Shown in pieces: positions 8,721 to 22,266 of a stretch of 64,000 nt of DNA. The stretch is taken from assembly GCA_964457775.1 (NCBI GenBank), contig CAYWEW010000007.1:6961-70960 (forward strand), written 5' to 3'. Source of the stretch: an uncultured Candidatus Saccharibacteria bacterium. Lineage in GTDB: Bacteria; Patescibacteriota; Minisyncoccia; Phycocordibacterales; UBA5272. The number at the start of each line of letters is the position of its first letter. Within the stretch, counting starts at the first letter, position 1. The position numbers were made by a program, and so were the translations under genes. Under the pieces are notes generated by a model. It was not told where the DNA came from and made no database searches. It saw nothing but the letters and a program-made list of their open reading frames with translations.

Positions 8721-8756
8721 AAATTTAATTTATTAACAGTGTGTTATAATTATTTT

Positions 8757-9407
8757 ATGAGTAAAAAACTTCCTACAGCTTTAGTCGCCGTTGATATATG
8801 TATTTTTAAGATTATTGATAATCAGCTTTGTGTTTATGTTACTAAGGTTGATAATGATAATTATAAAAATATGAGATGTTTACCCGGGGGACTTATATAT
8901 TTAAATGAAAATGCAGATGAGACAGTTAAGAGAATTATTGAAGAAAAAACCTGCCTAGAGGATAATAAGGTTTATAGAGAACAACTCTGTTCTTTTTCTA
9001 AAGTAAATAGAGACAAGAGAAGTAGAGTGGTTTCAGTTGCATATCTTGCTATTTATTCTGGTAATAGTAATGAAGGTTTTTTTAATATTAATTCGATAGG
9101 CAAACTGGCTTATGATCATAATGAGATTTTGGAAAAAGCAGAACACAGAATTTCTTCTAAGCTTGAATATACAACTATTGTGAAGAAGTTTATGAAAAAT
9201 AAGTTTACTTATTCTGAATTACAGAAGGCGTATGAGGTTATACTAAGAAAAGAAATAGATAAAAGAAATTTTAGAAAAAAGATAGACAGTTTGGATATTT
9301 TAAAGGAGGCAGGAACAATGAGAAAAGAAGGGAGGATGAGACCAGCTCAAGAATACACTTTCAAATCTGAAAAGGTTCAGAATTTCAAACTCTTTGGAGA
9401 ATTTTAA
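8757..9407 (+). CDS. NrtR-like regulator: Nudix-like domain plus C-terminal winged-helix (Nudix-related transcriptional regulator of NAD metabolism)
   Basis: Nudix-box-like LPGGLIYLNENADETVKRIIEEKT (G-x5-E-x7-R-x-x-E-E). C-terminal FTYSELQKAYEVILRKEIDKRNFRKKI resembles the NrtR wHTH signature. It sits at the head of an NAD-salvage cluster with matching palindromic operators. Start chosen at the second ATG (MSKKL). Confidence 0.55.
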   Translation: MSKKLPTALVAVDICIFKIIDNQLCVYVTKVDNDNYKNMRCLPGGLIYLNENADETVKRIIEEKTCLEDNKVYREQLCSFSKVNRDKRSRVVSVAYLAIYSGNSNEGFFNINSIGKLAYDHNEILEKAEHRISSKLEYTTIVKKFMKNKFTYSELQKAYEVILRKEIDKRNFRKKIDSLDILKEAGTMRKEGRMRPAQEYTFKSEKVQNFKLFGEF

Positions 9408-9532
9408 ATATAGCAGTTACGATTTGCGATTAAGGTGGTAATATTTCTAGTATTTGTAGTGCGAGTTATTTATTAAAATTGTGCATTTTTTGTTTGTTAT
9501 TAAATAATTTTAAAGTATTAATAATATACTAT

Positions 9533-9553
9533 TTAGTGTTCACTTGACACTAA
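9533..9553. promoter_or_regulatory. 21-bp palindrome TTAGTGT-TCACTTG-ACACTAA (candidate NrtR operator 1) overlapping the -35 box
   Basis: Perfect inverted repeat read from the sequence. It overlaps the TTGACA at 9544-9549. Confidence 0.5.
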
Positions 9554-9572
9554 AATGTGATAGGTGTACAAT
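9544..9572 (+). promoter_or_regulatory. Sigma70-like promoter TTGACA-17-TACAAT upstream of the island's first gene
   Basis: Canonical hexamers with 17-nt spacing. Flanked by two identical-arm palindromes. Confidence 0.5.
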
Positions 9573-9584
9573 AAGATTAGATAA

Positions 9585-9605
9585 TTAGTGTATAGTTAAC
9601 ACTAA
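9585..9605. promoter_or_regulatory. 21-bp palindrome TTAGTGT-ATAGTTA-ACACTAA (candidate NrtR operator 2) downstream of the predicted start site
   Basis: Perfect inverted repeat with the same arms as operator 1. Centres are 52 bp apart. Confidence 0.5.
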
Positions 9606-9704
9606 TTAAGGGAATGTCATTTTGACACATTAGGCAGATTGTGGTAGTGTCATTCCTAATGATTGTTGTTTGACAATTAGGTTTAATTCGAAAAGGAGTA
9701 TTCC

Positions 9705-10529
9705 ATGAATACTGTTTCTGTAAGTGGTAAGTGTGATTATCTTGTAGGGAAACCTCTTGGTGGGAATAGTCGGTTCAATTTGTATCGGGCGTCCTCAAAT
9801 GCTTATCCTGATCAAGACTTCATACTCAAGATTGCAAAAACAACTGCGCAAAATCCACTTTTGGAGCGTGAGGCTTTTATTTTTTCGATTATGAATGATG
9901 AAGCTAAACGTCTTGAAGAAGAATATGCGCGGGTTACTGAAGGAAAAGGGTTTCTTAATTATCAGGTTGGTTTCCCTGTTTTGGTCGAAACATTTTTGGC
10001 TGACTCACAGGATAATCGACGGGTTATTGTTGCATCTCTTAGCTCAGAAAATATTAGCAATTTTGTTTCTCTTTCTATGGTGCGTGAACGTGATCGTGTT
10101 CGTGTTGATCCAAAAACAAGTGCCTGGATAATGGGAAAACTTCTCAAGATTCTTGCATTTTGTCACAACCAAAAAATCATAAACAAAAATATTTCTTGTG
10201 GTAATGTTCTCATAGAACGAGGTAATCATCTAGTTACTGTATACGATTGGTCAACTGCTTCAATTCACAACGAAGGTATTCCTCAGGCAGATTCACGAGA
10301 AGAAATAAAGTGCGCTACGCGTGAAGTGGTTCGTGTTTTGGGTGGTAATATCGTTTCGGGAGAAATCCCTGATGATAAACAACTCGTAGATGGTAAGTAT
10401 CAAGAATTTCTCATCAAGCTACTTAGTGGTTCTTATAGCAATGCAAAGGAAGCCCATTCGCGTTTTTACGAAGTTGTAGAAGCAGTCTGGGGCAGAAAGT
10501 TTCACCCGTACGCCTCTTACCCACTGTAA
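9705..10529 (+). CDS. Atypical protein-kinase-like (RIO/Kdo-kinase-like) protein, possibly a pseudokinase
   Basis: FILKIAK (VAIK-like beta3 Lys), LEREAF (alphaC Glu), NKNISCGNVLI (parallels RIO HGDLSEYNILV but with the catalytic Asp replaced by Asn), VTVYDWSTAS (DFG-like). GC about 40%, above the genome background. Confidence 0.5.
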   Translation: MNTVSVSGKCDYLVGKPLGGNSRFNLYRASSNAYPDQDFILKIAKTTAQNPLLEREAFIFSIMNDEAKRLEEEYARVTEGKGFLNYQVGFPVLVETFLADSQDNRRVIVASLSSENISNFVSLSMVRERDRVRVDPKTSAWIMGKLLKILAFCHNQKIINKNISCGNVLIERGNHLVTVYDWSTASIHNEGIPQADSREEIKCATREVVRVLGGNIVSGEIPDDKQLVDGKYQEFLIKLLSGSYSNAKEAHSRFYEVVEAVWGRKFHPYASYPL

Positions 10530-10540
10530 AGGAGAAGGAA

Positions 10541-11650
10541 ATGGAAAAGCGACGCTTTACCAGGGAAACATTCGCTGGTGTCAGGGAAAAAGTCTCTGCT
10601 GCTGGCGGAGATACGTCTTTTGCTGGTCGTCAGCATATCAAGAAAACCAACAAGCTTCACCCGCTTGTTGACCCTGCCGGCTATGGACTTGTTCGCAGGT
10701 CTTTGCCACGGTACTCAGAGTTGGCTGATGGACGGTTACTGTTGCCGAACGGCATTCCGATGCTTGACGAAACATTGTTCGACACGACTGGTTCGATGGG
10801 GCACAATGTTGCCCTTGCGTTTGAGTCATTGCCGACGATGTATGACCTTTTGACTGTGGGTGATTGTCCGGTTTTTGGCCGGTACGACCCGCAGATCATC
10901 AATGCCATCTTCGGCGATGTTGTGGATGACTACATCTGTGCTCGCTCACAAGCGGAAATGGATGAAAAAATCCCTGAACAGCTAACGCTGATGGTTCCAG
11001 AAAACGCTGGTGGTGATAATCCGGAAGATCCGGAATACGGCCTGTTTGGTGCGGCATTCCTCACGGATGCTTTTATCAACAGGTACGGCCTGAAAAGCTA
11101 TCATTCACTGGTTACCGATGCGACCAGTCATGGCCGTATCGACAAACCCAACCTGATTCGTGTGTTCGGTGATACGGTGTTCGATGTGGTTAAGGAAAAT
11201 GGTCATAGCATTACTGCGAAAGACCTACCTACCACAAAGGAAATCGTTGACGAACTAAAGAAGCGTACACACGCTTTCATGGTTCAGGTCGGTGATGAGG
11301 CTTATGTTGGAAGGTACTGGTCCGAAATTTACGGAGTTGATCACCTCGTCGTTATTGAATCGACGAAGTATCTTCCGTTCGTTAAGGCAGCCATTATCGG
11401 TCTAACTGAAGGCATCTTCGATTTGCAGTTTGTGCCTCAGTACCTTGAGTCGGTCGGTTGTGCGAAGAGTGCAGCAAAAAGCATTCAACGCGCAGTTGCC
11501 GGTATTCCTCTCGGTGCACAAGTGATGCTTCCCAACTTCGGTAAGATTCCGAATAGGGGAAGTGTGTTCGCAAAGAAACAGGACCTCTGGCCCATTGCGG
11601 ACGGTGCCACTGTTGACGAGGAAGAAACTGACGACGTTAAGTGGCTGTAA
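10541..11650 (+). CDS. von Willebrand factor A (vWA) domain protein, TerY-like
   Basis: MIDAS motif LFDTTGSMG parallels the D-x-S-G-S-M of TerY-type vWA domains. GC about 50%. Confidence 0.65.
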   Translation: MEKRRFTRETFAGVREKVSAAGGDTSFAGRQHIKKTNKLHPLVDPAGYGLVRRSLPRYSELADGRLLLPNGIPMLDETLFDTTGSMGHNVALAFESLPTMYDLLTVGDCPVFGRYDPQIINAIFGDVVDDYICARSQAEMDEKIPEQLTLMVPENAGGDNPEDPEYGLFGAAFLTDAFINRYGLKSYHSLVTDATSHGRIDKPNLIRVFGDTVFDVVKENGHSITAKDLPTTKEIVDELKKRTHAFMVQVGDEAYVGRYWSEIYGVDHLVVIESTKYLPFVKAAIIGLTEGIFDLQFVPQYLESVGCAKSAAKSIQRAVAGIPLGAQVMLPNFGKIPNRGSVFAKKQDLWPIADGATVDEEETDDVKWL

Positions 11651-11666
11651 TTTACGCCACATCAAG

Positions 11667-11704
11667 TGTTGGTGGGGTCATGGTTAAAATGGCCCCACCA
11701 ACAT
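11667..11704 (+). other. Strong intergenic hairpin (11-bp GC-rich stem) between the vWA and PurA-like genes, no T-tract
   Basis: tgttggtgggg-(15-nt loop)-ccccaccaaca. Confidence 0.5.
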
Positions 11705-11731
11705 TAACATTAACCAAAAGGGAGGTGAAGA

Positions 11732-13123
11732 ATGGCTATCAAAAAAGCATATACTGTCACTGACCTTGGTGGTGGTGATGGAGGTAAGGGTGGTGTTATA
11801 CACAAGTTGTGTGCACTTCGTCGCCCTCATACAGTTATCAAAGTTGGTGGAGCACAAGGTAGTCATGGTGTTTTTACTTCACATGGTGAAAGATTCAATT
11901 TCAGTCAGTTTGGATGTGGGACATTCAATGGATCAAGGACATTTATATCTAATCGATTTGTTGTCTCACCCGTGGGATTACTTAATGAAGCACATGCGCT
12001 TCGATATGAATTAGGTGTACACGATCCGATGTCACTTCTAACGGTGGATGGTAATGCTCTCTGCACAACCCCATACCACGGGATAGCGTCTCGTCTTAAA
12101 GAACTCGCAAGAAAAGAAAATCCACGAGGAATTGTGGGTGTCGGGGTTGGTGAGGCGTTTATAGATGCCAAACAATTTCCTGAGCTTGCGTTTCGTGCGG
12201 CGGATCTTGGTCGTAAAGACATGAGATCTCGTCTTGCTCAGGTTCGAGCACAGAAGCTAGAAGAAGTTGCTAACGTGTTTGCATCTGGCTTTATGGCGGG
12301 GGATATAGAAGAAGCCAAAGAACAGCTTGATTTAATTCGTAATGATGATTTTCTTGATTGGGCCGCAGAACAATTCGAAGAATTTGCTAAACGTGTTAAG
12401 GTTGTCGATGAAGATTTTATTCGTCGGGAAATTTTTTCACGTGATGGTATTATTGTTTTGGAAAGTTCACACGGCGTTCTCACTGACAGGTATTATGGTT
12501 TTGGCCCTCATACATCACGCTTTCGTACATTGCCCGAAATTACTTCTTGGAGCTTGCTCCGTGATTATGATTATGGTGGTGATATTGTTAAGTTTGGTGT
12601 GACTCGTGCTTATCAAATTAGGCATGGGGCAGGACCACTTGTAACTGAAGACACAGAAATGGCAAATGATTTGCTTCCACATGAAGTGGGCGCAGTCGAC
12701 CGCTATCGTGGAAAGGTTCGTGTTGGTCCACTAGATACAGTTTCTCTTCGTTATGCAATTAATGTTTGTGGAGGTAGTAATGCTTTTGATGCAATTGCTG
12801 TAACGTGGTTTGATAGTGTAATTAGAAAGGGTGAATGGAAGGTTTGTAATCGTTATTATGACGCAACGGACCCGCTATTCTTTAACCAATCTGGGGACAT
12901 TATTGTACGTAGAGGGGATGACGATGTTCAGTTAAGGCGACAAGAAAGTTTAACTAAGGTGCTTAAGTCTTGTCGTCCAAGTGTTACAACGTTTCAATTA
13001 TCAAATGGTACTTCGCAAGAAAAGGCGATTAAACTGTGCAGCGACGTGCTAGCTGAGAGGCTTGGTACACCTGTGCGGATGATATCGTTTGGTCCAACAG
13101 AAGCAGATAAAGTTTGCTTCTAG
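11732..13123 (+). CDS. Adenylosuccinate synthetase (PurA) family protein, divergent paralogue
   Basis: Colinear with PurA. GDGGKGG parallels the P-loop GDEGKGK. VGGAQGSHGV parallels GGHNAGHT. The C-terminal ISFGPTEADKV parallels ISTGPDRTETM. The IMP-binding GTTGRRRR element is altered (VDRYRGKVRVG), as is GTTGRGIGP (NPRGIVGVGVG). Strong AAGGGAGGTG ribosome-binding site. GC about 47%. Confidence 0.8.
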   Translation: MAIKKAYTVTDLGGGDGGKGGVIHKLCALRRPHTVIKVGGAQGSHGVFTSHGERFNFSQFGCGTFNGSRTFISNRFVVSPVGLLNEAHALRYELGVHDPMSLLTVDGNALCTTPYHGIASRLKELARKENPRGIVGVGVGEAFIDAKQFPELAFRAADLGRKDMRSRLAQVRAQKLEEVANVFASGFMAGDIEEAKEQLDLIRNDDFLDWAAEQFEEFAKRVKVVDEDFIRREIFSRDGIIVLESSHGVLTDRYYGFGPHTSRFRTLPEITSWSLLRDYDYGGDIVKFGVTRAYQIRHGAGPLVTEDTEMANDLLPHEVGAVDRYRGKVRVGPLDTVSLRYAINVCGGSNAFDAIAVTWFDSVIRKGEWKVCNRYYDATDPLFFNQSGDIIVRRGDDDVQLRRQESLTKVLKSCRPSVTTFQLSNGTSQEKAIKLCSDVLAERLGTPVRMISFGPTEADKVCF

Positions 13124-13173
13124 TTCTAAGCCGCGAGGAATTTTCTCGCATCAACCAACATTAGGAGAAAAGC

Positions 13174-14301
13174 ATGAACGATATACTGAAGGCCCGTTTG
13201 ATTGAGCTCGGACTCGGTGAAGACCAGGTTGCGAAGCTTGAAGCGGAAGGTGTCAAGGAAGAAGCCGATCTGCAGCTTCTCAATCGGGATGAATTGAAAT
13301 CACTCACCGGTTGCGGACTTGTGGCGGCGGCGAAGATTGCGGCGGCATTTACTGCTACTGTCGTAGCCACTCCGGCCGAGTCTGCGGTTCCGCCGATGGG
13401 GGCAGCAACGTTTGACATCCTCCCCCCGGTTCCGAGTGATGAAGCCTGGATGAATGCTCTCAAGGTTGGCGGCGTGCTCAAGTTCAATTCGAGTACTGTC
13501 ATCGGCACGGTGAGTGCAGCCCTAGCTGCCAAGGTGGGTCTTTACGAACTGCCGGGCAAGATCGGGGTGGCCATGGAAAGGCAGGCGGAGTCGCTCGAAG
13601 AACCTGTCGGTGAGGATTATTACCAGATGCAAAACCTCCTCACCCGTCGTAGCTATGCGGACATCTTTGCAGCAATGCCAGGTGTTGACGGCCGGTTCGC
13701 GACTCAGACGCGCAAGGATGTACTGCTTCGTCGTTTGAATGAGCGGTTGTGGGGCTCATTGAGCTCCTATCAACAACAGCTCAAGCAGTGGGTCGAGGCG
13801 TGGCAACAAGGGATGTCCAACCCTGCGGCCATGATGAGTGTGTTTACTGCAATGGCTGGTGGGGTCGGCGCTGTTCCTCCGGGAATGATGCAACCGCCCC
13901 CGATTGACGTTTTGCGGGATGCTGCTGACGGTGTTGTGAACGACATCAACTACGTGTTTGCCGGAACTGGCATTCCCGTTGCGATGGCGCTTGCATACGA
14001 CGCTCAGCAAATCCGCAAAGTTCTCGAAAACCCGTCGCTTCCTGCGCAAGTCGGAGCAGCGAATCGGGAACAAATGCTGCGCATGCTTGGTGCAGCGGTA
14101 TCGTCGGACTATCCGCGTCTCGAAAAAAACCTGAAGCAGTTTGCGCTCGGCATCATCGAGTTTCAAAATGTGACTTCAGGGCAAGCAGAGCTTCAATATG
14201 TCGTCGCGCTTTATCAGCTTGGTTCCATGATTCCGTGGGACAAGCTTGATACCAGCGACGGCGGTCATTCCGGCCTTGGTCGGGGAGGTAAGAAGCTCTA
14301 A
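13174..14301 (+). CDS. Hypothetical Ala/Gly/Pro-rich protein with an N-terminal SAP/HeH (Rho-N-like) motif
   Basis: ILKARLIELGLGEDQVAKLEAEGVKEEADLQLLNRDELKSL resembles HeH/SAP DNA- or RNA-binding motifs. The rest is low-complexity (MQPPPIDVL, AMAGGVGAVPPG). GC about 57%, the most atypical in the window. Confidence 0.45.
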   Translation: MNDILKARLIELGLGEDQVAKLEAEGVKEEADLQLLNRDELKSLTGCGLVAAAKIAAAFTATVVATPAESAVPPMGAATFDILPPVPSDEAWMNALKVGGVLKFNSSTVIGTVSAALAAKVGLYELPGKIGVAMERQAESLEEPVGEDYYQMQNLLTRRSYADIFAAMPGVDGRFATQTRKDVLLRRLNERLWGSLSSYQQQLKQWVEAWQQGMSNPAAMMSVFTAMAGGVGAVPPGMMQPPPIDVLRDAADGVVNDINYVFAGTGIPVAMALAYDAQQIRKVLENPSLPAQVGAANREQMLRMLGAAVSSDYPRLEKNLKQFALGIIEFQNVTSGQAELQYVVALYQLGSMIPWDKLDTSDGGHSGLGRGGKKL

Positions 14302-14341
14302 TCAGTTCTTTCTGTTTGTAATGTTGCTAATTTTGCAACAA

Positions 14342-14368
14342 AGGCGATCTTCGGATCGCCTTTTTTTA
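14342..14368. terminator. Bidirectional rho-independent terminator with a UUCG tetraloop, shared by the convergent 13174..14301 and 14384..16399 genes
   Basis: aggcgatc-ttcg-gatcgcct followed by ttttttt. Confidence 0.7.
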
Positions 14369-14383
14369 TACATAAGTTATTTT

Positions 14384-16399
14384 TTATTTTGGTTTACTTA
14401 ATTGTGGGAGAAATACTCTGTTAATAAATAATTGAGTAGCCAGTCTACGGTACCCAGAGTCATAAAAAGCACTATCACTATCAACGTTATCTGAATGTTC
14501 AGTTTCTAGATTTCCTTTTTTTGGAAAGAAATGTCTATATCCTTTGTGCATTAATCTGTATTGTAAAGTGTCACGCCCGATTTCCTCAGTCCAAACTTTT
14601 TGTGCACCTTGTCCAAGGATATATTTGTCCTCTGAATAAAGATATCCAGGCATTAATTTTTTATATAATTCTTTTATTGTTTCTGTGTCTCCATACCAAG
14701 CTCCGATGAGAGGATGAGTAAGAGTGCTATCGCCAAGTTTGGTGTCAGGATTATCAAAGTCTAAAATGGACATATTGCCGTCATTTTCTTCTAACCAAAA
14801 CTCCATAACCTCACCTTGTATTTTTTCATGAGTGAATGTTTTTTTTATTAAATCTTGGAGATGTTTACGTTTTTCAAATGGAGTACCAGGTTTAACAAAG
14901 ACTGCGATATCAAGGTCTGCTTTACTTTTTGCATATCCTTTTATTCTTGATCCAAGCATTATAACGACCGGATATATTAATTCGGATAATTCTTTATCTT
15001 TTTCGATGGATTCTATTGTTGATGTTATATCTTTAGTATGTATTTCTAAACTGTCCATTCTACCAGTTAAATCAAAATTTAAATTAGGTGATTTTATTCC
15101 AAAACTTGCCAGCTGTTCTTCATTTATAATTTGTAATGAATATAGATGAAGTATCAATTCTTCCGTGGCAGTATGAACATCAGAATCATTTTCAATTAAC
15201 CATAGACTTTTTATTAAGTTCTCATGTTTTTGATAAAATTCCTTAGCTTCAATGTTGCTTGTTTTTACTAAAGTTTCTATTACTTCTTGTATAGATTTAA
15301 TTATAAGTGTGTTTTCTATATTTTCTCCATCAATCGACAATTTATTTTTTATTAATGTTTCAAATTGTTCTGGTCCGAATGATAAAGTGTGAAGTGCTAT
15401 AATTTTTGAGTACCTTTCTAAAAGAAGCCTTCTTTTTTCTTCTTTAAGCCAAAGACCACGACGGTTGGTTGCTTCAGGGTAATCTCTATCAATAATTGCG
15501 GCTTCATTTTCAAAATCTTTTTGCATCATATCTGTAATATTTGAAATATCTGATTTAGGTAAGTCTAGTTTTGTTTCCTGAGAGCTAGATTTGTTTGCTT
15601 GTATGATTCTGGCCATGTTTGAGACCAGGCGATTTTCTGATTTTTCAATGAGGTCGAGGTCGTTTTCATTAATTAATCCCATATCTGCTAATACTGGTAA
15701 TGTATCAGCAATGCTATCCGCGAGTATCTTATCTGTCGTTGTTTCTAGTAAATTAATTATTTCTTCAAAAGATAATATTCCTCTTTTTAAAAATTGAGGA
15801 ATAAGATGCGCAGCTTTAACTACTTCAGGTAAGGGTTCTTTTCTGTACTCAACTTCTGGAATGTTACCATCTATGAAGTCAGCTCTAAGATTGTGTTGAG
15901 TAAGTAAATTCCCCCATCCATTTTTAATGTTAGACGCTAGTTTTGAGTTTGCCTTCGAAAGTTCATCTGTCTTTATTTGTGAATTTAAGTTGGGAAGAAG
16001 TTCAAAAGGCAAGTAAAGTAAAATTTGAGCATTATTTTTATCTTGTTCTAGCAAAAGAGAAAGGGTGTCGTAAAGTTCAACTAAATCTTTTTCCTGAAGT
16101 GTCTCATTTTTTATACTATCCCAGATATCTGTAGTTGCTTCTGGAATAAGATTATATAAATGACTAAGTTCTTTAGAAAGCCTTCGTCTTGTCCTTGCTT
16201 GCTCTTGCAGGTTTTTGTTATTTCGCACTTCTTCTGTCCAAGGTACATTTGTTGTTTCTATATACAATAATGATTCGGTGGCAGGGGAGGTGAGCACTAT
16301 TTTCGGAGATGATTCCAATGTTGCAAATGGCTGCTTGTTTTCCATAGTATTACATATATTATACAAGACAAGACTAGAGATGACTATTATCCTTGACAT
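14384..16399 (-). CDS. Large protein (671 aa) with an alpha-helical N-region and a C-terminal minimal nucleotidyltransferase (Pol-beta superfamily) domain
   Basis: NTase signature GSRIKGYAKSKADLDIAVFV (G-S-x9-13-D-x-D). Transcribed divergently from pncA and shares its operator-bearing intergenic region. Confidence 0.55.
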   Translation of the reverse strand: MSRIIVISSLVLYNICNTMENKQPFATLESSPKIVLTSPATESLLYIETTNVPWTEEVRNNKNLQEQARTRRRLSKELSHLYNLIPEATTDIWDSIKNETLQEKDLVELYDTLSLLLEQDKNNAQILLYLPFELLPNLNSQIKTDELSKANSKLASNIKNGWGNLLTQHNLRADFIDGNIPEVEYRKEPLPEVVKAAHLIPQFLKRGILSFEEIINLLETTTDKILADSIADTLPVLADMGLINENDLDLIEKSENRLVSNMARIIQANKSSSQETKLDLPKSDISNITDMMQKDFENEAAIIDRDYPEATNRRGLWLKEEKRRLLLERYSKIIALHTLSFGPEQFETLIKNKLSIDGENIENTLIIKSIQEVIETLVKTSNIEAKEFYQKHENLIKSLWLIENDSDVHTATEELILHLYSLQIINEEQLASFGIKSPNLNFDLTGRMDSLEIHTKDITSTIESIEKDKELSELIYPVVIMLGSRIKGYAKSKADLDIAVFVKPGTPFEKRKHLQDLIKKTFTHEKIQGEVMEFWLEENDGNMSILDFDNPDTKLGDSTLTHPLIGAWYGDTETIKELYKKLMPGYLYSEDKYILGQGAQKVWTEEIGRDTLQYRLMHKGYRHFFPKKGNLETEHSDNVDSDSAFYDSGYRRLATQLFINRVFLPQLSKPK

Positions 16400-16431
16400 T
16401 TCTAAATTTATGTTGTAGGGTTTTAAAAGAT

Positions 16432-16469
16432 TTGCATTAAAAAACTATATAGTGTATAATATACACTAT
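16432..16469. promoter_or_regulatory. pncA promoter TTGCAT-17-TATAAT with the 21-bp palindrome ATAGTGTATA-A-TATACACTAT (candidate NrtR operator 3) overlapping the -10
   Basis: Perfect palindrome at 16449..16469 with the same TAGTGT-N7-ACACTA core as operators 1 and 2. Confidence 0.5.
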
Positions 16470-16537
16470 TAAGGTAGATTACCTTGGTAAGGAAGTTCTT
16501 TGTAATAAAATCATTCAACAAACAAGGAGAAGTTATC

Positions 16538-17194
16538 ATGAAAAACAAATGGAAAATCGGTGAAAATGGTAACAAGGATGCACTGGTAATCATTGATGCA
16601 GAAGTCGATTTTGTGAATCCTGGTGGCAAACTTTATGTGTCCGGGGTAGATGGTGAATCAAGTGGAGATGATGTTGTTTTCGGTATAATCGAACTCAACA
16701 AACAGCCGTTCGATTATCGAGTCACCTCAGAAGATGAACATCCTCCTGGCCATATTGAGTTTGATATTTTTCCTCCACATTGTGAAAAAGGAAAAGTTGG
16801 TCAAGAATACGTAGCGGTCCTTGACCCCGTGTATGAAAGCAGTGATGAAAATCTCGTCAAAGGTGATGATGTTAGCATTATTGCCTACTCTATTGCAACG
16901 AGTAAGGAATTCGCCAATCACATTGGCCGTCTTCGTGCAAAGGGCATCAAGCGAATTTTCGTTACTGGCTGGGCATATACCCACTGTGTAGGAGAATCTG
17001 CAATTGCATACGCATCTCAAGGTTTCGAAACCTTTGTTGTGCGTGACCTTACTCGCAGTGTTGCTCCTCCTTACGGAGATCCTGAAGTCATGAAACAAAA
17101 ACTCGCACTTTATGGTGTCAAAGAAGTTTATATGGCAGATATGGAAAGTGCTGACTCATTTCTTTCTGTGGCCATAAGCAGCCCTTGTCCGTGA
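16538..17194 (+). CDS. pncA: Nicotinamidase / isochorismatase-family hydrolase (PncA-like)
   Basis: ALVIIDAEVDF (the ALLLVDxQNDF region of PncA). The Cys FVTGWAYTHCV parallels the catalytic GLATDYCV. AAGGAG ribosome-binding site before the ATG at 16538. Confidence 0.7.
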   Translation: MKNKWKIGENGNKDALVIIDAEVDFVNPGGKLYVSGVDGESSGDDVVFGIIELNKQPFDYRVTSEDEHPPGHIEFDIFPPHCEKGKVGQEYVAVLDPVYESSDENLVKGDDVSIIAYSIATSKEFANHIGRLRAKGIKRIFVTGWAYTHCVGESAIAYASQGFETFVVRDLTRSVAPPYGDPEVMKQKLALYGVKEVYMADMESADSFLSVAISSPCP

Positions 17195-17287: not shown

Positions 17288-19150
17288 ATGAAAAAAATTT
17301 ATACTAACAATTTAAAAATATCAGTTGCGCAAATGAGTCCAACACCAATGAATGTTGTGGCTAATTTGTCAGCAATTAAAGACTATATAAATAAAGCTAA
17401 AAATACTGGTTCACAAGTAGTTGTCTTTCCTGAGCTTTGTGTTTCTGGATATGTACTTGGTGATAGATTTGAGTACAGCGATTTTATAAATGAATTACAA
17501 GAAGCAAATGATACTATTCGTGAAATGAGTGAAGGTATTGTTGTTGTATGGGGGAACATTGTAAGTGACACTACTAAGATTGGTGAAGACGGACGCATTA
17601 GAAAATATAATGCTGTACTTATTGCGTACAATGGAAAGTGGGTAAGTAACGGTGTACTTCTAGGATTTTTACCAAAGAATAATCTTCCTAAATATCGTAT
17701 CTTTGATGATTCAAGACACTTTTATCCTGCATATAAATTAGTCAAAGAAATGAATTTAGAGTTGAACGATTTTTTTAAAGCTTTTGAAATAAATATTGAT
17801 GGTGTAATTTACAAAATAGCTTTGGCTATTTGTGAAGATATGTGGGAGGATGAATATTCAATAAAATTATCTAAGATATATCAAAAACAAAATATTGATT
17901 TGCTTGTCGACGTATCTGCCTCACCTTGGACACTGGGTAAGTGGCACGCACGTGAGAATATGCTTGTGAAAAGGGTTAAAGATTTGAATGCGCCAATGCT
18001 ATATGTTAATTGTGTTGGGCTACAAAATAATGGCAAGAATTTAATCTGGTTTGATGGAGCTTCTGTATTCGTTAAGGAGGATGGAGAATTTGTTTTTCGT
18101 GCAGAGAATAATATAAATAATTTGTATTCTTTTTCTGTTGCTGATTTAAAAGCAAATAATTCTTATAAACAAAAAAGTGAAGTAGAAGAACTTTATTCCA
18201 ATATCACAAGTGCAATGTATGAGTTCTATAAAGATTTTAATAAAGTAGTTGTTGGATTGTCAGGTGGCATAGATTCAGCACTTACACTTGCTTTACTTTG
18301 TGCTGTTTTACCAAAAGAAAAAATTCTTACAGTTAATATGCCAACTAGATTTAATTCTTCCACTACTAAAGATTTGGCTAAGAAATGTGCAGAGAATTTT
18401 GGTGTTGAGTATAAAGTAGTAGCAATTGATGAATTATTCGAAGCACAATGTAAAGTACTTTTGGATTCAGGTTTATCATCACTTAATACTTTAGTAAAAG
18501 AGAATATTCAAGCTCGTCTTCGTTTACAACAACTCGCAACTATTTCGGCATCTTATGGTGGGGTGTTTACCAACAATGGAAACAAGACAGAGGTATCCCT
18601 TAATTACTTTACACTTTATGGAGATGCAGGCGGATCATCAGCATTTCTTGGAGATCTTTGGAAAGGACAAGTGTATGAATTATCTAAATATATTAATTTA
18701 ATTAATAACAAAGAACTTATTCCAGAAGGAATTATAAATATTATTCCAAGTGCTGAACTTTCAGAAAATCAAAATGTAGACGAAGGGAAAGGGGATCCAA
18801 TCTTTTATGAATATCACGACAAATTACTTTTGGCTTTTGTTGAATCTCGTATAGGTATTACGGATATTCTTGTGAAATATGAGGCAGGCACCCTTGAAAA
18901 ATATTTGAAGTGTGAAGAAGGTACAATCGCAAAATATTTTAAGACAACAGCTGAATTCATTAATAATCTAGAATGGGCATGGAATGCATACAACACAGAA
19001 TATAAACGAGTACAGTTACCACCAGTATTTCTAGCATCTCGCAGAGCTTTTGGTTTTGACAGAAGAGACACTATCGCACCAGCTTTTTTCTCCCAAGAAT
19101 ATGTAACACTAAAAGAAAAACTCCTTACTTCATCTGATACTGCTACATAA
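17288..19150 (+). CDS. nadE: Glutamine-dependent NAD+ synthetase (N-terminal CN-hydrolase/nitrilase domain plus C-terminal NadE domain)
   Basis: PP-loop VVVGLSGGIDSA and an N-terminal carbon-nitrogen hydrolase fold. 620 aa. Confidence 0.9.
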   Translation: MKKIYTNNLKISVAQMSPTPMNVVANLSAIKDYINKAKNTGSQVVVFPELCVSGYVLGDRFEYSDFINELQEANDTIREMSEGIVVVWGNIVSDTTKIGEDGRIRKYNAVLIAYNGKWVSNGVLLGFLPKNNLPKYRIFDDSRHFYPAYKLVKEMNLELNDFFKAFEINIDGVIYKIALAICEDMWEDEYSIKLSKIYQKQNIDLLVDVSASPWTLGKWHARENMLVKRVKDLNAPMLYVNCVGLQNNGKNLIWFDGASVFVKEDGEFVFRAENNINNLYSFSVADLKANNSYKQKSEVEELYSNITSAMYEFYKDFNKVVVGLSGGIDSALTLALLCAVLPKEKILTVNMPTRFNSSTTKDLAKKCAENFGVEYKVVAIDELFEAQCKVLLDSGLSSLNTLVKENIQARLRLQQLATISASYGGVFTNNGNKTEVSLNYFTLYGDAGGSSAFLGDLWKGQVYELSKYINLINNKELIPEGIINIIPSAELSENQNVDEGKGDPIFYEYHDKLLLAFVESRIGITDILVKYEAGTLEKYLKCEEGTIAKYFKTTAEFINNLEWAWNAYNTEYKRVQLPPVFLASRRAFGFDRRDTIAPAFFSQEYVTLKEKLLTSSDTAT

Positions 19151-19212: not shown

Positions 19213-20523
19213 ATGAACCCGAAACTTCGTGAGCTTATTGAAGAAACGATTAGGATTGTTCGCAGTAAGGAATTTGTTCCGCCTGTTCAAAATGTAACAG
19301 ATATTGATGTTTACAAATTATTCATGATGCAATTTATCAGGCATTATTACCCAGATGTTGAAGCAACTTTCAAGTTGACCGTAAGAGATAAAGCGATAAG
19401 ACTTTGGAAGTATGTTGACCAAGATGAGCTTCGTCAATCTTTTGACCACATGAGGTCACTTTCGCTACGAAAGACTGACCGATATTATCTTCGTGGCATG
19501 GATCTCTACGACAAGTACATGTTTAGCGAAGATTTTCTTTCTTCTTTCGGAAGTTTTCATCTTCCGGAGTACAAGATTGACCACAAAGATGGGATTATGG
19601 ATGTTCAATTTCCTGGTCTGTGGTCAGAGAGCTCTCTTTGGGAAACTGGCGGAATGGCTGTTATTTCTGAGTTGTACTATCGCGGATTTTTGAAGGAGCT
19701 TACTGATGATCAAATACGTGACCTCTATATAGTTGCGGATAACAGACTTCAGAATGATCTACTTCGAATCAAAAAGAATCCTTGGGTTCGATTTGCTGAT
19801 TTCGGACATCGTCGTCGTCATAGTTTTCTTTGGCAGAAGTATGTCATTGGTGAAACCAAACGTGTTCTCGGTGATCAGTTCATCGGTACCTCGGATGTCT
19901 GGATGGCTTTTCATTATGACTTGAACGTGATTGGTACGAATGCTCATGAATTGCCAATGGTAGTAACGGCAATTGCTAAGAGCGATGAGGAAATGCGTCA
20001 AGCTCAATACCAAGTTCTTTGGCAGTGGCAAGAGATGTACGGCAAGGGTCTACGCATCATTCTTCCTGACACTTATGGGTCTGAGCAGTTTTTTGCAAAT
20101 GCACCTAAGTGGTTATTGGAGTGGCGTGGTCAAAGGCAGGATTCTGGAGACCCTATTACTGAAATTGATAGGTACAAGGATTGGCTCATTTCTAATGGGG
20201 TTAATCCCAATGAAAGAATCTCTCTCCCTTCCGATGGTCTTGATGTTTCGTCGATGATTTCAATCGCGTCGCATTATGAAGGTAAGCATGTAACTGGTTT
20301 TGGTTACGGTACGGGCCTCACCAATAACTTCAATGGCATTCTACCTGGGAATGAAGATTTTCGGTCATTCTCAATGGTGATAAAAGCCTATTTGGCAAAT
20401 GGTAATCCTTGCGTGAAGTTGCCAAACGATATCAATAAGGCAACAGGGGAAGCTTCTGCAAAAGAGCGCTATCTCAGAGTCTTTGGTCGACAGCATCGAG
20501 TCGAAAGAGAAGTGTTTGTTTGA
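19213..20523 (+). CDS. pncB: Nicotinate phosphoribosyltransferase (PncB family)
   Basis: DVYKLFMMQ, FADFGHRRRHS (the FxDFGTRRR motif), IGTSDV and GTNAHE motifs of the type II PRTase NAPRTase family. Confidence 0.8.
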   Translation: MNPKLRELIEETIRIVRSKEFVPPVQNVTDIDVYKLFMMQFIRHYYPDVEATFKLTVRDKAIRLWKYVDQDELRQSFDHMRSLSLRKTDRYYLRGMDLYDKYMFSEDFLSSFGSFHLPEYKIDHKDGIMDVQFPGLWSESSLWETGGMAVISELYYRGFLKELTDDQIRDLYIVADNRLQNDLLRIKKNPWVRFADFGHRRRHSFLWQKYVIGETKRVLGDQFIGTSDVWMAFHYDLNVIGTNAHELPMVVTAIAKSDEEMRQAQYQVLWQWQEMYGKGLRIILPDTYGSEQFFANAPKWLLEWRGQRQDSGDPITEIDRYKDWLISNGVNPNERISLPSDGLDVSSMISIASHYEGKHVTGFGYGTGLTNNFNGILPGNEDFRSFSMVIKAYLANGNPCVKLPNDINKATGEASAKERYLRVFGRQHRVEREVFV

Positions 20524-20588: not shown

Positions 20589-20628
20589 TTGCATTATATT
20601 TTATATAGTGTATAATGAACACTATATA
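20589..20628. promoter_or_regulatory. nadM promoter TTGCAT-16-TATAAT with the palindrome TATATAGTGT-ATAATGA-ACACTATATA (candidate NrtR operator 4) overlapping the -10
   Basis: Same TAGTGT-N7-ACACTA core and the same TTGCAT -35 as the pncA promoter. Confidence 0.5.
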
Positions 20629-20639
20629 ATTAATAAACT

Positions 20640-21554
20640 ATGAAAATAATCAAAAATATCAATCAATCAAAACAAAAGACCGTCGGAGTTGTAATCGGTA
20701 GATTTCAGCTTGCTAATTTGCACGAAGGTCACAAACACTTAATTGATACAGTTAAATCAAAGAATGATGAGATTTGTATTTTGCTTGGTTCATCAGGCGG
20801 GGCACCAACTAAGAGGAATCCACTTCCTTTTTCCATAAGAAAAGAAATGATTCAGGATTTATATAAAGATGCTAAGGTTTTTGAAATAGTTGATTCCAAA
20901 AATAAGTGGTCAGAGAATGTCGATAAAATTCTGAAGAAGAATTTTAAGAATAAAAATATTCGATTATACGGATCTAGAGATTCATTTTCCAAGTGGTACT
21001 TCGGAGAATTTCCTTTTGTCTATGTAAAAGAGATGCACGATATATCTGGAACAGAAATTAGAAATAGTAATATTTTACCAAAAGAAAAAGAAAGTTTTCG
21101 TCTCGGTATGATTGAAAGTCACAAGGTTAGATATCCTATTTCTTATCAAACAGCTGATATTGTTTTATTTGATGAAAAGAAAAGCAAAATTGTTTTAGGC
21201 CAAAAGGAGGATGTAAAAACTTGGTTCTTTCCTGGGGGCTTCGTTGATCCAAGTGATCTTTCTTTAGAAGATTCTGCAAAAAGAGAGTTAAGTGAAGAAG
21301 TGGTAAATATTGAAACAAAAGACGATGTTAAATATTTGGGCTCAATTAGAGTGAACGACCACAGATATAGAAATGAGGAAGACAAGATTATGACAAGTCT
21401 TTTTCTTATTAAATATAAAAGCGGAAAGATAAAAGCAGGAGATGATTTAAAAAGAGTAAAATGGTTTTCTTTAAAAGAGGCCAAGGAAGTCATTTCTGAC
21501 ACTCATACACCATTATTAAATATGTTATTAGAAAAGTACAGTAATGTATTATAA
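20640..21554 (+). CDS. nadM: Bifunctional NMN adenylyltransferase (NadM-type) / Nudix ADP-ribose pyrophosphatase
   Basis: N-terminal GRFQLANLHEGH (the HxGH nucleotidyltransferase motif). C-terminal Nudix box FPGGFVDPSDLSLEDSAKRELSEEV. Confidence 0.8.
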   Translation: MKIIKNINQSKQKTVGVVIGRFQLANLHEGHKHLIDTVKSKNDEICILLGSSGGAPTKRNPLPFSIRKEMIQDLYKDAKVFEIVDSKNKWSENVDKILKKNFKNKNIRLYGSRDSFSKWYFGEFPFVYVKEMHDISGTEIRNSNILPKEKESFRLGMIESHKVRYPISYQTADIVLFDEKKSKIVLGQKEDVKTWFFPGGFVDPSDLSLEDSAKRELSEEVVNIETKDDVKYLGSIRVNDHRYRNEEDKIMTSLFLIKYKSGKIKAGDDLKRVKWFSLKEAKEVISDTHTPLLNMLLEKYSNVL

Positions 21555-22266
21555 TATAGCAATGAAAAAGTTTTATATTATTGGGATTAATAACGAGGAA
21601 ATAAAAGATGAGTTTATTGGTCTTGGCTTTGTTTTGGATAAAGATAATCCCGATTTTGTGATTAGTTTTGGTGGGGATGGTACTTTACTTAAAAGTGAAT
21701 TTGAATATCCAGGTATACCAAAATTATTTTTGAAAAATACTAATGTTGGTAAATTGGCTCAAAATAAAAAGAATCAAGAAATAATTGATGGTTTTGTTAA
21801 TGGCCATTTTTTTATAAAAGAATATAAAAAATTAAAGATTACATTAAATCACGATAAATTTTTAATTGCATGTAATGAAATTAATATACATAATGCCAAT
21901 CCTCGCTCTGCAATAAGATTTAAAATTAAAGTTGATGATGATTATCTTCATCATGAGCTTATCGGAGACGGGGCGATTATTGCAAATGCTCTTGGTTCAA
22001 CTGGTTATTATAAATCGATTACCGACAGTTATTTTGAAGTTGGTATTGGTGTGGCATTTAATAATTCAACAGAAGCTGCTGACCACGTAGTGTTAGATGC
22101 GAAGAGAAAGATAAAGATTGAAATTACTCGTGGACCAGCAGAAGTGTTTGCAGATAATCAAGAAGAGTTTTTGAATGCAAAAGAAGGGGATGTTTTAGAA
22201 ATTGGAGAGATGGAAGAAACAGTAAAGCTTATCAGAATTCATGATGAAATTTTGGAGCAGGAATAG
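21544..22266 (+). CDS. nadK: NAD kinase (the start may be the internal ATG at 21565)
   Basis: GGDGT motif (ISFGGDGTLL) and GDGAIIANALGSTGYYKS (the DGxxxxTPTGSTAY motif). Confidence 0.8.
   Translation: MYYNIAMKKFYIIGINNEEIKDEFIGLGFVLDKDNPDFVISFGGDGTLLKSEFEYPGIPKLFLKNTNVGKLAQNKKNQEIIDGFVNGHFFIKEYKKLKITLNHDKFLIACNEINIHNANPRSAIRFKIKVDDDYLHHELIGDGAIIANALGSTGYYKSITDSYFEVGIGVAFNNSTEAADHVVLDAKRKIKIEITRGPAEVFADNQEEFLNAKEGDVLEIGEMEETVKLIRIHDEILEQE

Follow-up and report, generated by a model that had tools for sequence, protein, structure and literature searches.

What does a protein do that keeps the fold and catalytic machinery of adenylosuccinate synthetase (PurA) but has lost the residues that should hold PurA's substrates? 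The question is raised by an open reading frame (ORF) at positions 11732 to 13123 of a 64,000-nucleotide stretch from an uncultured Candidatus Saccharibacteria bacterium (the window, by which we mean the whole stretch of DNA analyzed). Public records of Patescibacteria metagenome-assembled genomes (MAGs) that give the gene a name label it adenylosuccinate synthetase. Our best reading of the sequence is that the encoded protein, called PurA-like below, would be neither an adenylosuccinate synthetase nor PurZ, the PurA-family enzyme of Z-genome phages. The explanation that we favor, with modest confidence, is a composite one in which PurA-like is a PurA-superfamily enzyme re-specified for GTP-dependent work on a substrate other than inosine monophosphate (IMP), within a module linked to NAD through the regulator NrtR. 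The gene and its ribosome-binding site are as follows.

11732 to 13123, plus strand: PurA-family enzyme with apparently rebuilt substrate pockets (PurA-like), 463 aa, ATG start; the subject of this work.
11718 to 11727, plus strand: Shine-Dalgarno sequence AAGGGAGGTG, read directly from the DNA, ending 4 nt 5' of the PurA-like ATG.

The gene is certainly real, because hundreds of full-length homologues share 52-94% identity with it. Judged by profile alignment, the ORF is a full-length PurA fold, colinear with PurA from the P-loop to the C-terminal SxGP: residues 15-458 match positions 8-413 of the 416 of Pfam Adenylsucc_synt (PF00709) with 117.8 bits, against a cut-off of 27. An earlier sequence-only reading had claimed this colinearity, a strong Shine-Dalgarno sequence and a set of altered motifs; all of these are borne out, and each motif change that it quoted is visible in our alignment with E. 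coli PurA. The protein fails the curated PurA models (TIGR00184, 80.3 versus 395.55 bits; NF002223, 77.9 versus 402 bits), and the solved adenylosuccinate synthetases match it with 46-50 bits only. The viral family phrog_1211 matches it with 157 bits.

We aligned PurA-like residue by residue with E. coli PurA, whose numbering is used here for the ligands; the contact roles assigned to them are those of the structural literature on adenylosuccinate synthetase. From E. coli PurA to PurA-like, GDEGKGK becomes GDGGKGG, GTTGRGIGP becomes GIVGVGVGE, ISTGP becomes ISFGP and TTGRRRRTGWLD becomes RYRGKVRVGPLD, and two substitutions join those listed before, FEGAQG to LESSHG and TKLD to TWFD. Equivalents of D13, K16, H41, T239 (as Ser or Thr), D333 and S414, the residues of the GTP site and of phosphotransfer, are retained family-wide; among 25 aligned sequences of the Patescibacteria clade, the window equivalents D16, K19, H45 and D361 do not vary, and 20 of the sequences have kept S452. 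Throughout the family, N38 is replaced by Gln, T129 by Cys, Val or Ile and V273 by His, the R143 region is deleted, and in the aspartate loop T301 is replaced by Trp or Tyr, R303 by Gly and R305 by Phe or Val. The window's clade has four further changes (Q224 to His, E14 to Gly, K18 to Gly and T300 to Arg). In the window protein itself, the IMP ligands N38, T129, R143' and Q224 correspond to Q42, V135, a deleted region and H247, with T239 alone conserved, while T301, R303 and R305 of the aspartate loop correspond to Y325, G327 and V329, and only the fourth arginine of the loop (R330) aligns. The family motifs Q42, H298 and the xW/YxGxxRVGxLD loop are all present.

By this alignment, the residues for GTP binding and phosphotransfer are retained and the ligands of the IMP 5'-phosphate and of L-aspartate are lost. 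Because D16, K19 and H45 are invariant and the ligand residues are changed, the enzyme looks active, with its acceptor and amine pockets rebuilt. It very probably performs PurA's GTP-dependent phosphoryl-activation chemistry, since it keeps PurA's Asp and Lys in the P-loop, its catalytic His, the Asp that specifies guanine and SxGP. Amine ligation to a nucleotide carbonyl, the chemistry suggested in the sequence-only reading, would be the most natural reaction for the machinery retained.

Could the protein still be a genuine, if very divergent, adenylosuccinate synthetase that uses IMP, aspartate and GTP? It would then serve as a route to AMP for purine-auxotrophic Patescibacteria, and would be co-regulated with NAD synthesis because NAD needs adenylate. 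The full-length PurA fold, the retention of D13, K16 and H41 and the public annotation agree with this idea, as does our failure to find a second PurA-family ORF in the 64-kb window. We nevertheless consider it improbable. The score lies five-fold under the curated PurA cut-off, and the ligands N38, T129, R143, Q224, T301, R303 and R305 are lost. The gene is also obligately linked to genes for a von Willebrand factor A (vWA) protein, a pseudokinase and a nucleotidyltransferase (NTase), the last of these fused to it in two relatives, and neither purB nor any other purine gene appeared as a recurrent neighbor in our census of Patescibacteria loci, described below.

The family to which PurA-like belongs is large. 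An exhaustive search of 1.8 billion cluster representatives yielded 1,315 clusters (50% identity) at E<=1e-30; these score far above canonical PurA, and PurA-like therefore belongs to a large separate family. We took a motif census of 150 sequences and built a neighbor-joining tree of them, using E. coli PurA and phiVC8 PurZ as outgroups, and three grades emerged. The first is a broad "phage-type" group (GD(E/A)GKG, QAAHN, GSCGMGIGE, EGAQG, xWQGxFRVGxLD), the second a small intermediate group (GExxKG, EGSHG), and the third a terminal clade that includes the window protein (GDGGKGG, QGSHG, GT(I/V)GxGVGE, ESSHG, R(Y/W)xGKVRVGPLD, TWFD). On sequence grounds, the true family of PurA-like is the uncharacterized PHROG 1211 "PurA-like" group.

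Close homologues with a named source are Patescibacteria proteins (from Paceibacterota, Nomurabacteria, Sungbacteria and Spechtbacteria, among others) with 52-73% identity, and the named relative nearest to the window gene is in a Ca. Paceibacterota MAG (L007, 71% identity). Scanning one genome for each species gave 144 relatives, and the 80 loci kept are from Saccharibacteria, Paceibacteria, Uhr-, Falkow-, Davies-, Moran-, Peri-, Wildermuth- and Ryanbacteria, with a few third-party-annotation (TPA) MAGs labeled otherwise, for example Gammaproteobacteria. One relative (P0154) has a 219-aa C-terminal extension, for which a PDB search gave no match.

The sequence-only reading had proposed a neofunctionalized member of the PurA family and had drawn an analogy with PurZ. 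The first proposal holds: the protein lies outside bona fide PurA (TIGR00184, 80 versus 395 bits), with catalytic equivalents kept and ligands replaced. The analogy does not. That the protein is a PurZ-like enzyme making a modified purine nucleotide for DNA or RNA is extremely improbable, and this idea can be regarded as already largely refuted. It draws on the name of the best viral family, PHROG 1211, which is labeled "2-aminooxy adenylosuccinate synthetase". The PurZ model NF038379 gives 15.9 versus 300 bits, with only the N-terminal 82 residues matching; phiVC8 PurZ, a shorter protein with other motifs (GSTGKG), branches outside the family; and datZ-, mazZ- or dpoZ-like neighbors are absent, the family being found in cellular chromosomes beside NAD genes. 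The same label as that of phiVC8 PurZ is carried by a gene of Mycobacterium phage ChickenPhender (L087, 5992-7320) and by RefSeq Bixzunavirus homologues. This PurZ-style label of RefSeq and PHROG appears to have been wrongly propagated, because the homologues are on a different branch and have different motifs.

If PurA-like is neither enzyme, its neighbors may indicate what it does. The sequence-only reading had called the gene a divergent paralogue; the divergence stands, and the gene is not alone: it has fixed cassette partners, a vWA protein and a pseudokinase, joined in Patescibacteria by a protein with a SAM-like domain (SAM-helical) and an NTase. In the window, the partners and the signals between them are these.

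9705 to 10529, plus strand: protein-kinase-fold partner, probably a pseudokinase, 274 aa.
10541 to 11650, plus strand: protein with a vWA or integrin beta-I-like domain and a motif, D81-T-T83-G-S85, resembling a metal-ion-dependent adhesion site (MIDAS), 369 aa.
11665 to 11705, plus strand: 17-bp stem-loop without a T-tract, in the spacer between the vWA and PurA-like genes; RNA fold of 11648-11740, -38.3 kcal/mol, z = -5.8.
13174 to 14301, plus strand: protein with a SAM/HhH-like N-terminal domain and an all-alpha C-terminal domain (unkB, the SAM-helical protein), 375 aa.
14340 to 14363, no strand assigned: intrinsic terminator-like hairpin (10-bp stem, then a T-run), located where the unkB and NTase genes converge.
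14384 to 16399, minus strand: nucleotidyltransferase of the Pol-beta superfamily (NTase), 671 aa, convergent to the operon.

Cassette and operator statistics were compiled from 83 non-duplicate loci of Patescibacteria (1.38 Mb; the candidate phyla radiation, CPR). The neighbors were identical in all loci examined: a gene for a protein of ~275 aa, one of ~370 aa, the PurA-like gene, a gene of 340-415 aa and a convergent gene of ~650 aa. With the window proteins as tblastn queries, the vWA protein was detected in 86 of 86 loci; the counts for the kinase-like, NTase and SAM-helical proteins were 79, 77 and 72. Order and orientation were constant, and most gaps fell at contig ends. Unbiased all-against-all clustering of the neighboring ORFs put the same five families at the top.

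The 274-aa protein matches the catalytic-loop regions of kinases in PDB profile searches (CK2, E 5e-8), as well as phrog_3043, "kinase". The aspartate of its HxD motif is Asn in the window, variable in CPR members and Ala in 20 of 22 phage members, and its beta3 lysine is Gln in 34 of 72 CPR members. Since the HxD aspartate is missing and the beta3 lysine is often Gln, its likeliest identity is that of a pseudokinase or of an atypical protein with a kinase fold. PDB profile searches by sequence found no match for the vWA family, only the N-terminal HhH/SAM region of unkB, leaving its all-alpha remainder without a structural match, and only the minimal core of the NTase. The SAM-helical protein is specific to the cellular, five-gene form of the cassette. 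The NTase has an intact GS...DxD motif (G483, S484, D495, D497) and a palm resembling that of non-canonical poly(A) polymerases; among 38 members, 34 match Pfam Polbeta, 31 NTP_transf_2 and 21 the MTPAP-like palm.

Two relatives, P0152 and P0171, are end-to-end fusions of PurA-like with the entire NTase (456 and 429 bits to the NTase hidden Markov model), and one such fusion sits 3' of kinase-like and vWA genes in a cellular contig (L137). These two full-length fusions are strong evidence that PurA-like and the NTase work together. The fourth gene of the cassette is followed by a strong terminator. The stem-loop lies in the 81-nt spacer from the vWA stop codon to the PurA-like Shine-Dalgarno; structured spacers at this position are strong in some other loci too, the median spacer being only 36 nt. 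A search of Rfam with the cassette leader and the intergenic hairpin found no known RNA family.

Several loci carry additional genes. In a Paceibacterota lineage, a gene for a major-vault-protein-like product (Vault_3 and MVP_shoulder, 830-847 aa) adjoins the cassette (L005, 13044-15536; L006, 12816-15359); the title of a 2026 preprint couples an NADase domain with the vault protein TEP1. Two cellular contigs (L138, 5796-13984; L137, 940-6807) hold members from outside the CPR clade, at 32-33% identity, with the multi-gene layout kept and a palindrome, GATGT-N7-ACATC, close to the start of the kinase-like gene. The former also has TrmB-like and Csx3-like genes, and an isochorismatase-like gene adjoins its NTase.

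The composition of the region could suggest a different origin, namely that the three GC-rich genes are a functionless foreign island or prophage remnant, recently acquired. From 10.5 to 14.3 kb, GC is 0.43-0.56 versus ~0.35 for the window, and GC at third codon positions (GC3) is 0.51 in the vWA gene (10541-11650) and 0.585 in the SAM-helical gene (13174-14301), the host range being ~0.22-0.30. The PurA-like gene between them is GC-rich as a whole (0.43 versus ~0.35), as the sequence-only reading had said, with the excess confined to codon positions 1 and 2; its GC3 of 0.274 is host-like, so the excess reflects amino-acid composition and gives no sign of foreign origin. The high GC3 of the vWA and SAM-helical genes recurs as a median over ~60 Patescibacteria loci of different lineages, a recurrence that a single transfer event does not explain. 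Host NAD genes flank the cassette and share its operator, and the cassette is free of phage structural or integration genes. With all this considered, a functionless island is highly improbable. The same GC3 bias produces long spurious antisense ORFs, such as 13161-13532 and 13756-14166. A blastn comparison of the island with the phage collection gave no match.

What, then, is the cassette connected to? In the window it sits between an nrtR-like gene and a run of NAD salvage genes, and operators of a single type are spread over both.

8739 to 9407, plus strand: nrtR-like regulator gene, Nudix-like and NrtR winged-helix domains (NrtR_WHD, 72.9 bits; weaker AraR_C and NUDIX).
9534 to 9552, no strand assigned: putative NrtR-type operator 1, TAGTGT-N7-ACACTA, exact palindrome, overlapping the -35 of the cassette promoter.
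9544 to 9572, plus strand: promoter-like site of the cassette operon, TTGACA-17-TACAAT, 11 of 12 consensus positions, the best-scoring in 9300-16600.
9586 to 9604, no strand assigned: putative NrtR-type operator 2, TAGTGT-N7-ACACTA, just 3' of the -10 hexamer.
16450 to 16468, no strand assigned: putative NrtR-type operator 3, exact, in the divergent region between the NTase and pncA-like genes, overlapping a promoter-like site at 16431-16460.
16484 to 17194, plus strand: pncA-like isochorismatase gene (Pfam Isochorismatase).
17288 to 19150, plus strand: nadE (Pfam NAD_synthase and CN_hydrolase).
19213 to 20523, plus strand: pncB (Pfam NAPRTase).
20606 to 20624, no strand assigned: putative NrtR-type operator 4, exact, upstream of nadM-Nudix and nadK.
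20640 to 21554, plus strand: nadM-Nudix (NMNAT and Nudix domains).
21544 to 22266, plus strand: NAD kinase gene nadK.

The pncA-like ORF is given here with a TTG start at 16484; the ATG at 16519, preceded by AAGGAG, is the likelier start and would place the operator at 16450-16468 ~50 nt upstream.

The 64-kb window holds exactly four copies of the 19-nt palindrome TAGTGT-N7-ACACTA, all of them between genes: two lie 5' of the cassette, where they bracket the region's best promoter-like site, one 5' of pncA-nadE-pncB and one 5' of nadM-nadK. Published NrtR operators are 21-bp palindromes with a GT-N7-AC core (PMC2330246), and the core of the window sites matches them. In the 83 CPR loci, AGTGT-N7-ACACT was found 32 times, versus 0, 1, 1 and 3 times for four composition-matched control palindromes. 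Twelve of these sites are 5' of the first cassette gene; the other targets are nadE, nadM, nrtR, prs, nadB, pncA-type, NMNAT-type, histidine phosphatase and two ADP-ribosylglycohydrolase genes. When one arm mismatch is allowed, a site lies within 350 bp upstream of the cassette in 21 of 72 loci, 15 of them without nrtR in view.

The neighbor census of the same loci points in the same direction, with NrtR (17), PncB (9), NadE (7), NMNAT-type (6), PncA (5) and ADP-ribosylglycohydrolase (4) genes. All recurrent neighbors specific to a pathway are NAD genes, and the remainder are generic, such as ABC transporter and two-component system genes. From the operators and gene neighborhoods, we infer that NrtR represses the cassette together with NAD+ salvage genes. 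In two Saccharibacteria lineages, ADP-ribosylglycohydrolase genes lie by the cassette, directly 3' of an NrtR-type operator (L074, 12735-13790; L076, 5942-6934), which suggests that reversible ADP-ribosylation is part of the same regulon.

The three core genes are also found in phages. About 200 Bixzunavirus mycobacteriophages encode a "PurA-like adenylosuccinate synthetase", 34% identical to the window protein over its full length, and its gene is directly 3' of a gene annotated as a Ser/Thr kinase and of a gene for a 593-aa hypothetical protein. Profile-profile comparison (hhalign) of window and Bixzunavirus proteins gave probabilities of 98.9 for the kinase-like and 96 for the vWA protein; both pairs share PHROGs (phrog_3043 and phrog_2971, respectively), and the best viral structural match of the vWA model is the corresponding Bixzunavirus protein. 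Of 48 viral loci, many of them on contigs of 130-437 kb, 45 had the vWA gene and 31 the kinase-like gene; SAM-helical and NTase genes occurred in two CPR-like contigs only, and no other gene recurred.

Some phages place the triad among NAD genes as well. On two phage contigs (L133, 145 kb; L098, 275 kb) the order is nrtR, NAMPT, vWA, PurA-like, kinase-like, the triad being of the distant phage type; an NMNAT-like gene follows it in the former, and a third contig (L101) has NAMPT upstream. Operator searches of these three contigs found one plausible site, TGGTGT-N7-ACACCA, just 5' of nrtR in the 275-kb contig, too weak to use. The NMNAT-like gene (L133, 10381-11517) encodes 379 aa, of which residues 217-312 match a cytidylyltransferase-like domain and the N-terminal ~210 have no Pfam match.

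The occurrence in phages raises the question of whether the cassette is a conflict module, defensive in bacteria or counter-defensive in phages. In such a module, sensing or binding of a target would fall to the vWA protein and the pseudokinase, PurA-like and the NTase would either modify a protein or nucleic acid or else synthesize or break down a nucleotide signal, and the coupling to NrtR would exist because NAD+ depletion is a common battlefield. Pairs of vWA and kinase-fold proteins, such as the TerY-P triad, and Pol-beta nucleotidyltransferases are common in conflict systems. Large phages carry the triad, ADP-ribosylglycohydrolases appear in the same regulon in two lineages, the kinase-like protein has weak PADLOC matches to PD-T4-6, and NAD+ reconstitution pathways of phages are known counter-defenses. 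On the other side, PADLOC gave no match for the PurA-like, vWA and SAM-helical proteins. Conservation of 50-70% across Patescibacteria classes in a fixed order is unlike fast-evolving defense islands, control would be by a metabolic repressor, and no toxin-like effector domain is present. We regard a conflict module as unlikely, but as the main rival to the explanation that we favor.

We therefore return to the NrtR-linked, re-specified enzyme. If NrtR represses the cassette along with NAD+ salvage genes, the cassette would be induced by ADP-ribose, a signal of NAD+ consumption, and the module would function in NAD+/ADP-ribose homeostasis. PurA-like would spend GTP to phosphorylate an oxygen of its non-IMP substrate, and a nucleophile other than aspartate would displace the phosphate. 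Co-regulation and gene neighborhood suggest a pyridine-nucleotide or ADP-ribose-derived molecule as the most likely substrate. The nucleotidyltransferase would act on the substrate or product of PurA-like, with the vWA protein and the pseudokinase as non-catalytic partners or regulatory subunits.

A more speculative extension, which we put forward tentatively and judge to be rather unlikely, is that the pseudokinase, vWA protein and PurA-like form an unrecognized route of NAD+ homeostasis, driven by GTP and common to Patescibacteria and large phages, possibly rebuilding NAD+ or a precursor from breakdown products. The substrate would be derived from ADP-ribose or a pyridine nucleotide, and its phosphate would be displaced by nicotinamide or some other nitrogen nucleophile; in the five-gene form found in cells, the reaction would be finished by the nucleotidyltransferase, whether fused or adjacent.

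Several points weigh against the NAD-linked enzyme as we picture it. NAD genes adjoin the cassette in only about a quarter of CPR loci and ~7% of phage loci. Co-regulation with NAD genes is equally what one would expect of a process that uses up NAD+ or reacts to its depletion. A complete Preiss-Handler salvage route is already encoded in the window, which leaves no obvious gap among the NAD steps. Finally, we know of no PurA-type reaction that needs a vWA protein or a pseudokinase.

These results bear on annotation as well as on NAD biology. If PurA-like makes no adenylosuccinate, as its residues indicate, metabolic reconstructions that credit Patescibacteria with the purA step are wrong. The uncharacterized family is large (at least 1,300 clusters at 50% identity), and its conserved partners and NrtR-type regulation offer a testable handle on a function linked to NAD+ and ADP-ribose, at a time when NAD+ metabolism is central to research on conflicts between phages and bacteria. 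Bixzunavirus phages, which have the core triad, can be engineered in Mycobacterium smegmatis, and the hypothesis is therefore directly testable. The cassette may be a new kind of multi-protein NAD-linked system, and were the NAD+-rebuilding idea true, it would be a new enzymatic solution, distinct from the phage pathways NARP1, NARP2 and NARP3 and from all classical NAD pathways.

How does the cassette compare with known systems? With PurA itself (EC 6.3.4.4; PF00709, TIGR00184), PurA-like shares the full-length fold and the P-loop, catalytic, guanine-specifying and SxGP residues named above. It differs in its replaced IMP (N38, T129, R143') and aspartate (T301, R303, R305) ligands, in the His at Q224, in always occurring with vWA, pseudokinase and NTase partners, and in having putative NrtR-type operators. 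PurZ (N6-succino-2-amino-2'-deoxyadenylate synthase) is likewise a neofunctionalized PurA-family enzyme, carried by phages, and PurA-like would be a further case, after PurZ, of the PurA scaffold being re-specified. The two lie on separate branches with different motif changes, PurZ is the shorter protein, and the window lacks a Z-genome context: the neighbors of phiVC8 purZ encode a dATPase, a primase and a polymerase, those of PurA-like a pseudokinase, vWA, SAM-helical and NTase proteins and NAD salvage enzymes.

The nearest counterparts are the Bixzunavirus PurA-like proteins of PHROG 1211, which have the same three-gene synteny and share the motifs HGxxGxGxGE, WQGxFRVGxLD and TRHGAGP. Unlike the window protein, they keep Q224 and GD(E/A)GKG, and they lack the SAM-helical and NTase partners. 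The literature that we searched held no characterization of them. Nor did the full-text literature searched, which was mostly outside subscription journals, describe the triad, the cassette or the Patescibacteria enzyme, so that an earlier description is possible.

Among NAD+ reconstitution pathways of phages, NARP1 consists of Adps and Namat, NARP2 of Nampt and Nmnat and NARP3 of PnuC and a NadR-like enzyme (PMC13464706). We considered NARP3 as a match to the cassette and rejected it, as its components are unrelated. These pathways are also carried by phages, and in two phage contigs the triad lies within an nrtR-NAMPT...NMNAT operon of the NARP2 type, while the bacterial cassette would belong to the NAD salvage regulon. 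Unlike the triad, none of their enzymes has a PurA, vWA or kinase fold. The TerY-P triad, or Gao_TerY (vWA, Ser/Thr kinase and PP2C phosphatase), likewise pairs a vWA protein bearing a MIDAS with a kinase-fold protein in a compact operon. The cassette differs from it in having no phosphatase, a kinase-fold protein without the catalytic Asp, a vWA protein without a PADLOC match and, as its third member, a PurA-like, probably GTP-dependent enzyme.

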